Virus record (IMG/VR): IMGVR_UViG_3300005941_000022
Location: 1-31,081 of that record
Length of the DNA stretch: 31,081 nucleotides
Direction: 5' to 3' (one strand)
Source: a virus
Taxonomy: Duplodnaviria > Caudoviricetes
A model generated the notes under the pieces. It was not told the origin of the DNA and did not search any database. It saw only the letters and a list, made by a program, of their open reading frames with translations. Made by a program: the position numbers and the translations under genes. Shown piece after piece: positions 24,913 to 31,081 of this stretch. Position 1 is the first letter of the stretch; each line of letters opens with the position of its first letter.

Positions 24913-25187
24913 TACTTAACTTTTAAATAGTCTTTCGGCATTGCAAATGCCTTGTATAGTTTTAATTGTGTTACGGTCTTAACACCGTTCACAAACATAT
25001 CTTGAATGAATCTAACGAAATCAAGCATTGTATCATTACGAGTAATGTGTCTCGATAGGCCTTTAAGCATCAAGTCATTCGTGTAGTCTCTGCCTTCATT
25101 TAGTCTACTATCGTTAGAAGACTTAGCAATATCATATCGCTTTCCTAACTTGTATTTCCAAAGGCCTCTGTATAGTTCGTCTGCCAT
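24912..25187 (-). CDS. Small baseplate-associated hypothetical protein (91 aa)
   Basis: TAATG stop/start overlaps on both sides, indicating translational coupling. Confidence 0.7.
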   Translation of the reverse strand: MADELYRGLWKYKLGKRYDIAKSSNDSRLNEGRDYTNDLMLKGLSRHITRNDTMLDFVRFIQDMFVNGVKTVTQLKLYKAFAMPKDYLKVK

Positions 25188-27016
25188 TATAATGCTCTTC
25201 TATTTGCTGACTGTATTTGTGTATATACTGATCTTGGGATAGGCTTACTAAAGTTAATAGAAAGTGCAGCCAATTCACCGATTCTAGCAGAGTCATTTAC
25301 TGTAGCACCGTCTCTATCTGCCCATCCACCTCTAAACATAGCAACTTCTTCTTTACTCAAGACGATATCACCAAACTCATCAAGACCTGTAACATTCTGT
25401 CTTACTTCAGCTGGAATACCTTGAGTCTTATCAAATGTAACAGTGCTAGAAGTAACAGTCTTCTTAAAGAACATCATTCTATTTTTACCGTTACCAACAT
25501 CTTCAAGTACTGGAGTTTGTGGTGTAATAGTAGTTTGTGTAACCGTATACGTTCCAGTTCTCATGGCATCTTCTTCCGCCTTAGATAGAAACTGTACGTT
25601 TACAGAATCAATACCATCAATACCTTCTAGTAGTGCAACGATGTCTGACTTAGGAAGTCTATCACGTCTTGTAATAGAAAGGATATATTGTGAAATCTTG
25701 CTTCTTACAACACTCATAAGTTTAACTTCATCAAAGCCTTCAAAGTGTCTGATCCAAACATTCATTGCATACATCTTAGCCTTTGGATTCACAAACGAAA
25801 TCTCAGTAGTTACCATCTGCTGGCCTGAAAGTTCAATAGCCTCTCTAATACCTTCTAGTTCAGACTCCATAAAGAAGAACTCTTCTTTAGGCATAGAGAA
25901 ATAGTCATGTCCTGTTCTTAGCTTAGACTTAACGTCTGGTAACAAGAATAGGTACATAACGTTGTCATCGTCTAAGTATTGATCATCAGTCAGGTTGTAT
26001 GCATCGATGTAAGAGAACATGTTATAACGCGCCAGGAAGTGCTCGTAGTTCTCTGGTGTAGCCAACACAAATGACTTTGAGTTTAGAGGTGCAATAAGCT
26101 TTGTAAATTCAATTGACTCAGGGTCAGCACCCATCTTAGGAGCTGAAGTTACTCTAACCTCGATAAGGTTGTTTAAGTTATATTCATTACCGATACTATC
26201 AAAGCCGGCTGTTTCAAATTCAAATGTGATATCAGGAGCATCTCCTAGGTTACCTGCAGAACCGCCTGTTTTAATATATTCAACTAGGATGAATGCACCT
26301 AGATTAGGCATCATACCGAAGTTACCATTACCAAAGAAAAGATCAATACCACCAGTAACACCAGTTCTAATAACAACACCTCTAGTCGTTGCGTTCATAT
26401 CGTAAAGGCTATTGTATACAGTCCATTGTTCACCATTTACTGAAACATATACCTTGTCATGTGCTGTAGCACCGCCAGTCTGAACATTAAAGGTTTGGAA
26501 CGGTTCACCAGTACCAGTAAGAGATTGTCTCTGTACCTCACCTTGAATAATAGGTATTCTAATAAAGTTTCTTTCAGACTTAAGTAGTGGAATAATATCA
26601 TCAGAAGATCTTAGTAGATACTTTAAGCCATTGTTCTGTGATTTAATAACAGTGTTGCTAGAGATGTATAGAGTTTCACCTGCAATAGTGTCTTGTTGGC
26701 CTGGCTGCCATGCGATTTCAATTTCGCCCATAGCAGAGAAACCTCTAGTTGCATTGTGACCTGTAAGAGCGGCTAGGCCATAGATTGATTCAGGTTGTTG
26801 AGCTGTTAAAATATTCTGCTCAACAGTAGCGTCTTCAACATAGTACATGATCATCTCAGTAAGCTCTGAAGCCACCTTGACCATTTGCGCAAATGGAGAA
26901 GCTGAAGTAAATAGATTATTGGCACGACCATAAACCCTGCTCAAATACGATTTAGTATCCTCCTGAATTTGGGTAGCCTTGACTCTTGCGGCACTAAGAA
27001 AGTTAAAATCAGCCAT
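25187..27016 (-). CDS. Baseplate wedge subunit (T4 gp6 / baseplate J-like)
   Basis: AQQPESIYGLA..GH, LFFGNGNFGMMP, VEYIKTGGSAGN, GADPESIE...AP, ATPENYE; follows the gp25-like gene. Confidence 0.85.
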   Translation of the reverse strand: MADFNFLSAARVKATQIQEDTKSYLSRVYGRANNLFTSASPFAQMVKVASELTEMIMYYVEDATVEQNILTAQQPESIYGLAALTGHNATRGFSAMGEIEIAWQPGQQDTIAGETLYISSNTVIKSQNNGLKYLLRSSDDIIPLLKSERNFIRIPIIQGEVQRQSLTGTGEPFQTFNVQTGGATAHDKVYVSVNGEQWTVYNSLYDMNATTRGVVIRTGVTGGIDLFFGNGNFGMMPNLGAFILVEYIKTGGSAGNLGDAPDITFEFETAGFDSIGNEYNLNNLIEVRVTSAPKMGADPESIEFTKLIAPLNSKSFVLATPENYEHFLARYNMFSYIDAYNLTDDQYLDDDNVMYLFLLPDVKSKLRTGHDYFSMPKEEFFFMESELEGIREAIELSGQQMVTTEISFVNPKAKMYAMNVWIRHFEGFDEVKLMSVVRSKISQYILSITRRDRLPKSDIVALLEGIDGIDSVNVQFLSKAEEDAMRTGTYTVTQTTITPQTPVLEDVGNGKNRMMFFKKTVTSSTVTFDKTQGIPAEVRQNVTGLDEFGDIVLSKEEVAMFRGGWADRDGATVNDSARIGELAALSINFSKPIPRSVYTQIQSANRRAL

Positions 27017-27028
27017 TGATAGGGTTTA

Positions 27029-27385
27029 TTAATTTATGTAGACACCGACTTGATACTTAGAATCAACTACAATGTCAATTTGCGCAATGTCACGTACAGT
27101 CCCTTTAAAGAAAGATACAGACACTTGCGTGTTATATTTTTGTGCTAACGGTGAGAACATTTCAATTTGCTCTTCAATGAGTCCTCGAATCTGCCCTTCG
27201 TTATAGTTTAATGTGTACACAAGGTCTTCTAGATTAGCTCCTAGTAATGGTTCACCCATAACATCACCCCTCTTTGTGAAAAGAATGGTTTCGAGTTGTG
27301 TAAGAACCATTGAAATCTCACTCTCAGAGTGGATTTTATATGGATCAAAGTTAGGATCACCGTAAGCTCTAATATAGAATTCCAT
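27029..27385 (-). CDS. Baseplate wedge/sheath initiator (T4 gp25-like)
   Basis: QLETILFTKRGDVMGEPLLGANLEDLVY; 118 aa. Confidence 0.85.
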   Translation of the reverse strand: MEFYIRAYGDPNFDPYKIHSESEISMVLTQLETILFTKRGDVMGEPLLGANLEDLVYTLNYNEGQIRGLIEEQIEMFSPLAQKYNTQVSVSFFKGTVRDIAQIDIVVDSKYQVGVYIN

Positions 27386-27394
27386 TGCTAAGTT

Positions 27395-27402
27395 TATATA
27401 TC
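27395..27402 (-). promoter_or_regulatory. GATATATA putative late promoter
   Basis: In the 20-nt spacer, 9 nt upstream of the gp25-like ATG. Confidence 0.65.
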
Positions 27403-27405
27403 AGT

Positions 27406-28242
27406 TTAAGAATGGAACATCCAATCTGTACCTTCGTCTGTTTTGATCTCTTCGATTACCTTATCAAGTTCTTCCTGTCCCATAGACTGGATAACATCAG
27501 CATTGATAGTAATGTTACCAGGTAGATTGTAGCCAAAGATAGCTAGCTTCTGACCAAGAGAAACCTTTACCTTCGCAGCAACATATCTAAAGAAGATCTC
27601 GTCACCGAACAGAGCACAATCAGGAATAGTCTCATAGATCTCAAGAATAACAGGCTTGTTTGGTGTTTGACCTGTGAACTTAAGTTCATGAGTCTGTTGT
27701 GAGTAGTGGAACGATAGTGGATTTTCTAAGATCTGGCGCGCCATGTCAAAGAATGATTCGTTGATCACATAGTATTGTAGGTTCTCAGCACCTTCAACAA
27801 CAGATGAACCGCCTGAATATAAAGAACCAAATAGGGCTCTTTGAATATCAAAGTCACCTGTTGTAAATGTAATAGAAGAACCAGCACCATATCTAGATCC
27901 AACCATAGCAACAGCGTAGATAGAATAGACTTCGTTACCTCCAGTCGCTGGGTTTTCACCAGGCATAGTTAGGGCCCTACGATTTTTAAAGTGCTCAGAC
28001 TGGAATGCCTCTAAAGGAATATACAAGAAGTTCTCAGTCATTGAGTACTCATAGTTCTTGTAGAACCACTTCTTTGCTCTTTTAATAATATTGTATACCT
28101 CGGCTCTAGGCAGATTCATAGGAATCATACAAGAACCTGTTACCTCACTTGCAATCTCATCGATGAAATCATTCAAGCAGTTTGGATCATACGATGGTGG
28201 TGTTGTTAAATCACCTAAGTTACCTTCGAAAATATCTCCCAT
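27406..28242 (-). CDS. Neck / head completion protein (T4 gp13-like)
   Basis: C-terminal FFRYVAAKVKVSLGQKLAIFGYNLPGNITINADVIQSMGQEELDKVIEEI matches the gp13 'Y..A..K...GQ.L.....LPG.V.++' pattern. Confidence 0.78.
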   Translation of the reverse strand: MGDIFEGNLGDLTTPPSYDPNCLNDFIDEIASEVTGSCMIPMNLPRAEVYNIIKRAKKWFYKNYEYSMTENFLYIPLEAFQSEHFKNRRALTMPGENPATGGNEVYSIYAVAMVGSRYGAGSSITFTTGDFDIQRALFGSLYSGGSSVVEGAENLQYYVINESFFDMARQILENPLSFHYSQQTHELKFTGQTPNKPVILEIYETIPDCALFGDEIFFRYVAAKVKVSLGQKLAIFGYNLPGNITINADVIQSMGQEELDKVIEEIKTDEGTDWMFHS

Positions 28243-28247
28243 TTTCT

Positions 28248-29552
28248 TTAGTCTATTTTTGTAGAGTTCACAATTTCAGTTCCGTCGAATTGTGCATGTT
28301 TTTCGCTGTATCCACCCTCTCTGAAGATACCCGCTTTCATTTTACCTTTAAAAATACTGTCAACGCCAAATACATAACAGTCTTCTAGGGTACAACTTGC
28401 ATGCGTATAACATGATTGTACCTTAGAACCTTTAATAGATGTTGATTGAAATAGATTACAGCTTTGTAGATCAGCACCTTCAATTTTGCAACGATATAAA
28501 TCACTTCTTTTTATTTCGCCTCTAATCTCACAATCAACAAATTCATAACCAGATAAGTTATGTGCTGCCATTAGTTTACCGTCTTTAACCTGAACCTTAG
28601 ATCTATCGGTATCATAGTTGATATGACCCTCGATTAGACCGCCTTCAGTAATAAGCTTAATGACTTGCTCCTTGATCTGATCCCAATACATATCTATCGT
28701 TTCACCACGATTACCACCATCAGGACTTAAATCAAGTGTAAACTTAATATTCTGAAAGTTCTTAAAGTTTCTGTGGTCCTTGTATAGATCATATGTTGGT
28801 TTTAACTTGTTCATGATCCTACGTAGTTCAAGTCTGTTCAACTCATTCAAATCTGGATTAACACACGCATTCCAAAGCTGAATCAAGAACAGGTCCAATA
28901 AATGTAGGATTGTTGTAGTCTTCTTCTCGTAGTCTTTACCACCTAGATATCTAAACTCTAGATAGCCATCATTTTGCTTTAAGAAGTTAACACCATAATA
29001 CTTAGTATCTGGATATTTAAACTGCTGTTTTGAGATGTGGTTTTCATCAAAGTTAAACAACTCGTTTTTAGGTAGAATATACTTAATAGACTTTGCGTAA
29101 ACGAGGTCCCTTCTTTCAGGGAAGAACTTATAAACCTGATCCTCTTTAAAGTCAAGAATAAACTTAAGAGTATTCATATGTGTGATGAAATTTGCACCCA
29201 CCTGCTTCTTATCAAAAGAAACATTCAAGTGGATACCTGCTCTATCTGTAGTGTATCCATTTTCCTGAATCCACGCTAGAGTCTTGATAATAATCAATCT
29301 TGCATCAGTATATGCAAGTGCGCCGGTCACCATTTCCATGAGACCGGCACCACCTGACATATCGGGTTCTATCTTAAACTCTCTATCGGAAGGTTTGAAG
29401 TCCGAGTGTGCTTTTTCTTCGACTCTGACCTTTCGGTTCAGTACCTTTCCAAGCATTTCAGCAGTCTGTTCAACCGAATGGTTTGAATAAAATTCAAACT
29501 CAATTCCGCAAAAAGCTTTTAATAGAATATCTTTGTTCGCTTCGTTTAGCAT
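28248..29552 (-). CDS. Putative amidoligase (Amidoligase_2 / COOH-NH2 ligase-like) with a C-terminal beta-solenoid
   Basis: GIEFEF, EPDMS, EMVTG, AGIHLNVS, KYYGVN, LEFRY motifs. Confidence 0.78.
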   Translation of the reverse strand: MLNEANKDILLKAFCGIEFEFYSNHSVEQTAEMLGKVLNRKVRVEEKAHSDFKPSDREFKIEPDMSGGAGLMEMVTGALAYTDARLIIIKTLAWIQENGYTTDRAGIHLNVSFDKKQVGANFITHMNTLKFILDFKEDQVYKFFPERRDLVYAKSIKYILPKNELFNFDENHISKQQFKYPDTKYYGVNFLKQNDGYLEFRYLGGKDYEKKTTTILHLLDLFLIQLWNACVNPDLNELNRLELRRIMNKLKPTYDLYKDHRNFKNFQNIKFTLDLSPDGGNRGETIDMYWDQIKEQVIKLITEGGLIEGHINYDTDRSKVQVKDGKLMAAHNLSGYEFVDCEIRGEIKRSDLYRCKIEGADLQSCNLFQSTSIKGSKVQSCYTHASCTLEDCYVFGVDSIFKGKMKAGIFREGGYSEKHAQFDGTEIVNSTKID

Positions 29553-29581
29553 GGATATATTGGAATCTTACTATTTAAGAT

Positions 29582-29589
29582 TATATATC
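29582..29589 (-). promoter_or_regulatory. GATATATA putative late promoter
   Basis: Intergenic, 29 nt upstream of the amidoligase ATG. Confidence 0.65.
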
Positions 29590-29613
29590 CGCCTCAGAAA
29601 GCGTATTAAGTTA

Positions 29614-30957
29614 TTACATAATGACCTTCAAGAATACTCTCTTAGTGTCTAGATCAACCTTAGTAACTTCTACTTTGATCTGTTCACCCTTAGTAAACGT
29701 ATCCTTTAGGGATGTTCCTTCTGGGAACTCTGAGATATGCGCCATACCAACTACAGAACCATGTACTGAGATGAATACACCATAATCCTTAATAGATCTA
29801 ATAACAGCATTTTCAACAATCATAGGTACCTTCAAAGTCTTTGAGAACTCTTCCCATGAAGTGTCTTCCTTAACCTCTGCAACTTCTTTTTGTGTTAGGA
29901 TAATCTTCTCATTTGATACGATCTCCTTGATCTTGAACTTAACCTCTTCACCTGGTTGGATGCTTTGAGATCTGTGTCTTTCAGCAAGGTCTTGATCTAG
30001 GTCATTAACGTGAATCATACCTGTTAGGCAAGTATTAAACTCAACGAAGACACCATACTTAGCAGAACCTGTAACACTACCAGTATACTCGTGTGTCATA
30101 TTGTTCTTCACCTCTTCGATTTGGTGTGGGATCATAGCCTGTAGATACTTTCTGTGTGATACGACAATAGTACCTTTTTGTGCAGAGAAAGAATCTGGAA
30201 CAACATACATCTTTGTGCCAATGATAGACTCAAAGTCATGTAGCTTGTTAATACCTGCCAAAGAACCTGGCATGAAACAATTAATACCTTGTACGCTGAC
30301 AATGTAACCACCGCCTGGAATCATCTCCTTAACAGTACCCATGTAAGCAGTACCACCTTCATCTGCTGCAACTCTTAGTTCAGCAAACACACGCTGCTTA
30401 GTTCCTTCAGAGATAGACGCAGTTGCGTATTCTTTCGATTCTGTCTTATCGCTAAGGATCTTAATTGAAACTTCGTCACCTGGCTTGATATCTTCAATAA
30501 CATCACGATCTTCTTTAGCTAGATCAATGTAAAGCATCTCACGATAACCGATATCAACAGTAGCCCATTTCTCACTCATAGAGTGGATACGACCAGTCTC
30601 AATACGACCTACACCAAGTTCAGAAATAGTTTCTTCAAACTGTACTGTTGAGATCATGTTGTAAAAGTCCTGTGCATATGGCTCGTGGCAATACACGATA
30701 TCCTTATGACTTCCAGTCTTAATACGATCGTTACGTCTTAGTTTGGTGTTGTGATGAAATTCATAACGATCCCAATCGAATTCGCCATTAGGCAATAGGA
30801 ATGTTTCTTCATCTGACGCATCATCTGAAAGATCTAATACGTCTACTTCAAGTGATGTTTCTTCTTGAAGCTTAACAGGAGCCTGTTCTTTCTTAGAGAG
30901 CCTCTGTCTTTTTGGTTGGCCGTTGCTATTTGCACCAGCCTCTTTTTTTGAGTTCAT
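29614..30957 (-). CDS. rpsA: Phage-encoded ribosomal protein S1 (bS1) homolog with four S1 domains
   Basis: ATVDIGY...PGDEV (D1); GYIVSVQGINCFMPGS...IVVSHR (D2); GSVTGSAKYGVFVEF...GMIHVNDL (D3); SIKDYGVFISV...GMAHISEF...KVDLDTKRVFL (D4). Confidence 0.88.
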   Translation of the reverse strand: MNSKKEAGANSNGQPKRQRLSKKEQAPVKLQEETSLEVDVLDLSDDASDEETFLLPNGEFDWDRYEFHHNTKLRRNDRIKTGSHKDIVYCHEPYAQDFYNMISTVQFEETISELGVGRIETGRIHSMSEKWATVDIGYREMLYIDLAKEDRDVIEDIKPGDEVSIKILSDKTESKEYATASISEGTKQRVFAELRVAADEGGTAYMGTVKEMIPGGGYIVSVQGINCFMPGSLAGINKLHDFESIIGTKMYVVPDSFSAQKGTIVVSHRKYLQAMIPHQIEEVKNNMTHEYTGSVTGSAKYGVFVEFNTCLTGMIHVNDLDQDLAERHRSQSIQPGEEVKFKIKEIVSNEKIILTQKEVAEVKEDTSWEEFSKTLKVPMIVENAVIRSIKDYGVFISVHGSVVGMAHISEFPEGTSLKDTFTKGEQIKVEVTKVDLDTKRVFLKVIM

Positions 30958-31014
30958 TTTATTTAATTTAGAGTGAATGAATACTTAATATATAACTCGC
31001 TTCTTTTTAGTGTA

Positions 31015-31080
31015 TTATTTGTTGTTAATCTTAAAACCTAGCTGTTTACCATACTCAAGAATCTGTAAAGTAGTATCTTC
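31015..31080 (-). CDS. 3' end of an upstream gene (partial)
   Basis: Open frame ...EDTTLQILEYGKQLGFKINNK* ending at TAA 31017-31015; too short to be certain of the frame. Confidence 0.4.
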   Translation of the reverse strand, partial: EDTTLQILEYGKQLGFKINNK

Positions 31081-31081
31081 C

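Follow-up and report, generated by a model that had tools for sequence, protein, structure and literature searches.

A four-domain bS1-type protein encoded among the baseplate genes of a large marine phage as a putative stand-in for host bS1

We analysed a window of 31,081 nucleotides, the whole of the IMG/VR record IMGVR_UViG_3300005941_000022 (Caudoviricetes), and found that a large uncultured marine phage carries a gene for a bS1-like protein whose home is among the baseplate genes. The gene is a real phage gene under purifying selection, and its 447-residue product is a well-supported bS1-type phage homolog of a known kind, with a putative function. In the explanation that we favour, with a probability of roughly 0.6, the protein would be a late stand-in for the bS1 of the host, docked at the bS1 site and serving A-rich, unstructured leaders that lack SD sequences. 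The gene itself is a common one, and its worth lies in the test that it allows rather than in its discovery. In the passages of PMC7162821 on these genes (2020), it was left undecided whether phage 'S1' genes encode true ribosomal proteins, and the corresponding passages of PMC6375957 (2019) set the question aside as ambiguous. A docking motif that is specific to a class of hosts and has named residues, together with a reconstituted Flavobacterium johnsoniae system with purified bS1, makes this question testable. If the phage S1 binds, remodelling of the ribosome by phages, so far a matter of small proteins, would extend to the arm that recruits mRNA, in hosts with SD-independent initiation.

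The open reading frame runs from 30957 to 29614 on the minus strand and encodes 447 residues followed by a stop codon, exactly at the coordinates given in the original prediction for this DNA (Table 1). Pfam S1 matched the protein with an E-value of 5.8e-21, two stretches being significant singly, and TIGR00717 aligned with residues 109-443 at 127.9 bits. This score, as well as those obtained with PRK06299 (134.8 bits) and PRK06676 (120.8 bits), was far under the cut-offs of the three bS1 models (577, 524 and 368, respectively), none of which was reached. Searches with phmmer matched 17 distinct PDB sequences, with bS1 at the top. The AlphaFold2 model, built on an alignment of 31 sequences (pLDDT 74.9, pTM 0.47), contained four beta-barrels and short helices at residues 49-53, 62-68 and 95-102, with low confidence for residues 1-51, and its best fold matches in Foldseek were bS1 chains. 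No family for the S1-like protein was present in PHROGs, and the ESM Atlas held several all-viral S1 clusters of 76-112 members. The predicted arrangement of four S1 domains after an N-terminal region was thus borne out by TIGR00717, Pfam, the four barrels of the model and Foldseek. The PKRQRLSKK, acidic and EFDWDRYE segments were also all present, with eight K/R in residues 1-30 and ten D/E in residues 31-52. Residues 1-52 are predicted to be disordered and are variable, most relatives having a basic K/R-R-x-R patch. Their dN/dS was 0.24, compared to 0.06 for the whole protein (computed against a single relative, L004, with dS near saturation), and that of residues 53-110 was 0.04, indicating a constraint equal to that of the folded domains.

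Table 1. Positions of the S1 gene, its parts and its neighbours in the window
Feature	Position	Strand	Evidence or remark
Four-domain bS1 homolog gene, 447 aa	29614..30957	-	ORF, Pfam, TIGR00717, phmmer, AlphaFold2, Foldseek
N-terminal tail, residues 1-52, basic then acidic	30802..30957	-	Model, conservation, dN/dS
GEFDWDRYE, residues 58-66, F-x-W motif of Bacteroidia-type bS1, likely uS8 contact	30760..30786	-	Conservation
Predicted helix, residues 94-102, aligning with the uS2-binding N-terminal helix of bS1	30652..30678	-	Model, alignment
Domain 1, ~residues 114-186, D1 type	30400..30618	-	Profile typing; D135/R139 align with E. coli D39/K43
Domain 2, ~residues 201-271, D2 type, family motif FMPGSLAG	30145..30357	-	Profile typing
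Domain 3, ~residues 286-358, D4/5 type, not D3; RNA-binding S1 domain	29884..30102	-	Profile typing
Domain 4, ~residues 376-447, D4/5 type; RNA-binding S1 domain	29617..29832	-	Profile typing
G-free leader TTCACTCTAAATTAAATAAA, conserved and restricted to S1	30958..30977	-	Leader comparison
GTTATATATT, variant of the GATATATA motif of the window	30987..30996	-	Likely late promoter
Downstream neighbour, 434 aa, amidoligase-like lead, in 79/80 loci	28248..29552	-	Own GATATATA at 29582-29589
Neck adaptor, gp25-like and baseplate wedge genes of the structural module	25187..28242	-	Profile matches, locus comparison

A profile scan of IMG/VR found at least 505 S1 relatives in the first 600 stretches matched, and ~910 were estimated overall. 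The best 80 related loci hold 49 distinct S1 proteins, 31 of which have less than 92% identity and are the relatives compared below. Of these best 80 loci, 79 have the next gene, 76 the neck gene, 75 the gp5-like gene, 74 gp25 and 71 the wedge gene. In the window, whose 31-kb record is estimated to be 10% complete, the neighbours include T4-like neck, baseplate, tail tube, SSB, primase and helicase genes. A second IMG/VR contig (L001) equals the window over 11,465 bases and then continues for 10 kb further upstream with co-directional ORFs, including a gp5-like baseplate gene two genes upstream of S1. The S1 gene therefore sits inside a structural module; its earlier placement upstream of structural genes was correct for the genes downstream of it and incomplete for the other side.

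The gene lies near the contig end, as would be expected for an assembly chimera or a recently captured host rpsA, and a chimeric join with host DNA had been considered from the outset. This explanation was refuted, and we give it next to no credence. L001 is identical to the window over the shared bases and carries phage genes upstream, and a Logan contig of another run, one that is not marked as a source of the record, covers 28563-31081 with 0 differences. Further, the GC content of the S1 gene (0.397) and its GC3 (0.339) are in the range of 12 neighbours, and identity to Bacteroidales S1 is ~25%. A joint seen in run X5 (32-letter side, 90% likeness) is best explained by a related phage. At least half of the words of the window were contained in 19 of 24 listed runs; all 19 are marine metagenomes, and two may be sources of the record.

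Several observations were made on the surrounding genes. The 434-aa neighbour matches, at 0.96, Atlas clusters that are viral, with Amidoligase_2 on 17-19% of members; the Atlas also gave a pentapeptide-like lead, and Pfam gave no match. This protein may be a peptide ligase whose gene is linked to one for a ribosomal protein. The gene directly upstream of S1 (L001, 8729-9943, plus strand) is highly variable and its neighbours are conserved, the product being 404 aa in L001, ~150 aa in L005 and L008, and 365 and 572 aa in G080 and G045. Positions 3-1460 of the window (minus strand) encode a protein of 486 or more residues with repeated 'E-S/G/A' segments and phrog_1987 at its C-terminus, and GATATATA lies upstream of it. 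L021 (MT835643.1) and similar small 'phage' records contain an ordinary bacterial rpsA, and look like misfiled host contigs.

The types of the four domains were determined using profiles made from the bacterial set. S1 domains have been grouped into types 1, 2, 3, 4/5 and 6, and short S1 proteins ascribed to C-terminal loss (Salah et al., 2009; PMC2760812). In all 31 phage relatives the first domain was of type D1, the second D2 and the third D5, while the fourth was D4 in 28 and D5 in three. The third domain of the window protein scored 12 bits with D3, 28 with D4 and 35 with D5, and the typing is weakened by these low scores and by long branches. When six short or divergent bacterial S1 proteins were held out as controls, the third domain was typed as D3 in every one. 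D3 followed D2 in none of the 54 phage-type representatives among the 150 best matches, LR756500 giving a tie. The inter-strand loop of the third domain has eight residues in 31/31 relatives, like D4 and D5, compared to seven in all 44 D3 domains that could be parsed. A quick domain tree also placed both C-terminal domains of the phage proteins on the D4/D5 side (SH-aLRT 91), on very long branches. Profiles of two domains with their linker could not separate D3-4, D4-5 and D5-6 for the C-terminal half, and the linker after D2 appears in the AlphaFold2 model as the long helix of the D2-D3 junction. We read this pattern as a loss of D3 internally, by recombination between repeats, and sequence drift may be the alternative. 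The description of the protein as a shortened S1 holds for its four domains in place of six, but not in the sense of a plain C-terminal truncation, since domains 3 and 4 are both of type D4/5. The RNA-face residues F304, H316, D319, Y392, F395 and H407 are invariant among the relatives. In E. coli, the mRNA path is lined by OB2-OB4 (PMC10983998).

E. coli bS1 is anchored on uS2 by F5 and F9 of its N-terminal helix, with K43 in a zinc pocket (PMC10123108). In F. johnsoniae, the segment with the F-x-W motif is a helix touching uS8, and the bS1 N-terminus is held stably on uS2 and uS8 (PMC13000457). F98 and I102 of the phage helix occupy the positions of F5 and F9, and the helix positions are hydrophobic but variable. 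R139, which aligns with K43, is invariant in 31/31 relatives, and D135, which aligns with D39, is kept in 30/31; at the K43 position, five of six more distant huge-phage homologs have K and Lak has S. F60 and W62 are also invariant in all 31 relatives, and the motif is found in Lak phages of Prevotella as well. A similar F-(D/N)-W motif had been attributed to the start of the S1 of Bacteroidota. Among 49 bacterial S1 proteins, F-x-W was present in all 19 of Bacteroidia type (10 named Bacteroidales, and nine assigned by identity and tree) and in none of 30 others (20 of the same phylum and 10 outgroups), in agreement with this attribution. The motif was absent from five distant huge-phage homologs, and only 12 of the 54 phage-type representatives among the 150 best matches had it. 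Of the ribosome-docking region proposed to be kept, D1, D2, R139 and F-x-W were conserved in 31/31 relatives each, and the helix less well, with its variable positions and I102 for F9. Judged from these conserved residues, docking at the bS1 site of the Bacteroidia 30S subunit is likely.

A quick tree of the helix and D1-D2 was made from 14 of the 31 phage, six of the seven distant and 32 of the 49 bacterial proteins. The 20 phage rows grouped together with a support of 100, on a long stem that lies apart from the 32 bacterial rows, and holding this clade with Bacteroidia was not rejected (p-AU 0.333). The separate, long-stemmed clade indicates an old phage lineage and shows no donor; in this tree it is not nested in Bacteroidia. 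We infer that the host belongs to the Bacteroidia, on account of F-x-W, the homologs in Lak phages and the use of SD.

An SD core (GGAG, GAGG or AGGA at -17 to -5) was found at 0 of 24 ORF starts in the window, compared to 6.3% of random positions, the first start codon of each ORF being used and a few starts being possibly wrong. The four A-rich leaders quoted in the original prediction were found in the sequence, and the SD-less character of the window was confirmed. SD use was seen in 9 of 304 ORFs of the phage relatives, 33 of 339 in Bacteroidia loci and 14 of 42 in other phyla. Since the mRNAs of Bacteroidia hosts are SD-poor too, SD-less leaders cannot tell phage from host messages, and we rejected the absence of SD as evidence for phage-specific translation. 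The supposition that a bias towards phage mRNAs could be based on such leaders is unsupported for the same reason.

Features specific to the S1 leader were found when it was compared to those of other ORFs. CAC(C/T) occurred at -24 to -14 in 24/31 S1 leaders and in 6/271 other ORFs, and the information in the S1 leader was 17.3 bits compared to 5.4-13.6 bits for eight neighbouring genes, the motif being defined and counted on the same 31 related sequences with neighbours at the same loci as the control. In the window, only the S1 gene has the motif. It was found in 0/22 host rpsA leaders and was absent from seven distant huge-phage and Lak leaders. A is present at -12, -13 and -6 of the S1 leader, and A at these positions favours initiation in F. 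johnsoniae (PMC13000457). Folding energies of the phage S1 leaders were between 0 and -3 kcal/mol in 12/12 cases tested; a structured, riboswitch-like element was dropped because the leader folds only weakly, and Rfam gave no match in L001. The TTCACTCTAAATTAAATAAA leader probably acts as a strong region for initiation or as a site where S1 binds. In E. coli, bS1 is a repressor of the SD-less leader of its own gene (PMC10931766), which makes autoregulation of the phage S1 through its leader a lead, a plain strong initiation region being an equally likely role.

The GATATATA motif occurs seven times in the window (1504-29589), compared to 1.81 expected; all are on the coding (minus) strand, and six lie no more than 51 bases from a start. 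A looser TATAT promoter-like motif was found upstream of S1 in 30/31 relatives, against a background of 8.7%. Promoters of the T4 type served as the model for a late promoter. On the strength of its position and this model, the GATATATA motif is likely a late promoter of the phage. One RNA run (X20, with 5% of the words) yielded three close contigs, which fall on neighbouring genes and none on S1, and therefore has no bearing on S1 expression. A separate motif, roughly TTTTG-N-TTATATTAG-TA, was observed upstream of many small ORFs (relatives G080 and G045; L283, 6700-16400, plus strand; L285 and L286, minus strand), and is possibly an early promoter for the host polymerase.

Among other translation components, bS21 was found in 8 of 10 related contigs searched, 19-24 kb upstream of S1 and on the same strand; all eight are longer than 120 kb, and four of the eight look near-identical. 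It was not found in contigs of 44 and 72 kb, the former, this phage's own, ending before the expected place. Five incomplete relatives of 123-170 kb were searched for IF1 and IF3, with no match, and two of the five carried tRNAs; the window and L001 contained no tRNA or tmRNA. Of the partners suggested at the start, bS21 and, in part, tRNAs were thus present in relatives, and the initiation factors were not found in these incomplete ones. The phage bS21 (L283, 9238-9426, plus strand; L285, 19711-19905, minus strand) lies between DnaJ-like and PhoH-like/RNase H-like ORFs, labels read by eye from the translations, and is co-directional with S1. On the Bacteroidia 30S subunit, bS21 stabilises bS1 (PMC13000457).

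In the explanation that we favour, the S1 protein would be made late in infection, and the F-x-W segment, the N-terminal helix and D1 would dock it at the bS1 site of the Bacteroidia 30S subunit. There, it would displace or stand in for host bS1, and bring A-rich phage mRNAs without SD sequences to the ribosome. In F. johnsoniae the ribosome holds bS1 only loosely, and the addition of bS1 raises initiation on an SD-less mRNA twofold (PMC9976891). D1 and D2 were counted in favour of docking, since they are the ribosome-binding domain types and are kept in 31/31 relatives. Counted against it were the lack of a D3-type domain, I102 in place of F9, the patchy occurrence of F-x-W and the position of the clade outside Bacteroidia. 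Against any role on the ribosome, we counted that S1 domains act off the ribosome in many roles during phage infection (PMC10931766). The protein may be such an off-ribosome RNA factor, either a chaperone of late mRNA, a helper of a phage nuclease or a decoy for an attacker of host bS1, with the docking residues a relic or meant for another partner. Host bS1 activates T4 RegB, the minimal part being D4-D5, and is targeted by T4 RIII and ModB (PMC10931766); the phage protein retains two D4/5-type domains, and the choice between 'on or off the ribosome' is left undecided in the relevant passage of Al-Shayeb et al. (PMC7162821). For RNA chaperoning, however, F-x-W, the helix and R139 would not have to be as strongly constrained as they are, and bS21 co-occurs in 8/10 relatives searched. 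We regard an off-ribosome role as unlikely.

Binding to the ribosome could also serve inhibition, the protein filling the bS1 site, ejecting host bS1 and lowering host translation while unstructured phage leaders are spared. In E. coli, the S1 fragment of residues 1-106 drives out native S1 and acts as an inhibitor of canonical mRNAs (PMC3296737), and both the absence of a D3-type domain and the nearly unfolded phage S1 leaders would suit an inhibitor of this kind. The invariant RNA-face residues in both RNA-binding domains would be superfluous for a pure blocker, and the likely late timing is unsuited to host shut-off, making this role rather improbable. A virion or assembly protein, co-expressed with the baseplate genes as a part of the particle or its cargo, would account for the fixed place of the gene between the gp5-like gene and the neck, gp25 and wedge genes (71-79 of the best 80 loci), and baseplates contain OB folds. 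We consider this very improbable, as all profile and fold matches are to bS1, and Lak as well as three of five other huge phages carry the S1 gene apart from the neighbour block of the window.

Beyond a stand-in for host bS1, we can offer a more speculative possibility, which we hold to be doubtful. A family of giant phages, widespread among those of Bacteroidia, may refit the platform of the ribosome with bS1 and bS21 as a matched pair, the D3-less S1 docking by F-x-W, ejecting host bS1, preferring phage leaders over those of the host and regulating itself via the conserved CAC-Y-TTAA leader. If true, the result would be a specialised ribosome of viral making, fitted with a feedback loop of its own.

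Phage S1 genes, the idea that they replace host S1 and the correlation with SD use are already published (Al-Shayeb et al., 2020; PMC7162821). In the open-access literature, which takes in few subscription journals, we found neither an experimental test of a phage S1 nor any typing of its domains. Likewise not found in print were two D4/5-type RNA-binding domains without D3, a G-free leader specific to S1 and the presence of bS21 in 8/10 relatives.

Al-Shayeb et al. (2020; PMC7162821) reported a 'possible rpS1' in SD-poor huge phages and suggested that it replaces host S1. These proteins (LR756500-LR756504, LR745206 and Lak) also have multiple S1 domains, and their TIGR00717 scores of 131 and 173 bits (Table 5A of that paper) compare with 128 bits here. 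Their identity to the window protein is 28-37%, in six records of phages of 462-735 kb and 15 Lak records, and they fall in one clade with it. LR756500 has the same gene block as the window, and the other huge phages lack the block except for single structural neighbours. Among the passages of that paper on rpS1, we found neither a typing of the domains nor any motif for docking or in the leader. The marine subfamily is distinguished by its basic and acidic tail and F-x-W, compared to the five distant homologs without F-x-W and the three domains of Lak. The Lak homologs (L018, 11947-13056; L019, 11950-13059; code 15) keep F-x-W and the spacer but stop at a charged tail that follows the third domain.

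The bS1 of Bacteroidia (Phocaeicola vulgatus, L107; F. johnsoniae, PMC13000457) has the same F-x-W, helix, D1, D2, helical linker and basic residue at the K43 position. It has six domains and ~600 aa, whereas the phage protein has four domains and 447 aa and stops after domain 4. At ~25% identity, the phage S1 differs further in a longer spacer between F-x-W and the helix, in having no D3-type domain and only two domains past D2, and in falling outside the Bacteroidia bS1 clade. The S1 proteins of Bacillota and Actinomycetota also have four domains, but in the order D1-D2-D3-D4 ascribed to C-terminal loss (PMC2760812), unlike the D1-D2-D4/5-D4/5 of the phage S1.

Phage bS21 (PMC9723584, PMC6375957) is also an initiation protein carried by Bacteroidetes-type myoviruses, and has been linked to late expression. 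The bS21 of Chen et al. (2022; PMC9723584) is on the reverse strand by the TerL and capsid genes, whereas the one described here is co-directional and near DnaJ-like, PhoH-like and RNase H-like ORFs. S1 was excluded as ambiguous by Mizuno et al. (2019; PMC6375957), and was not found in the portions consulted of Chen et al. (PMC9723584) and of the jumbo-phage papers PMC7824862 and PMC11165621. The bS1 of cyanophage PhiMa05 (PMC13157829) is phage-encoded too. By its description, it is host-like and belongs to a set of six ribosomal proteins with a Vampirovibrio-like donor, which sets it apart from the deep phage-specific clade seen here.
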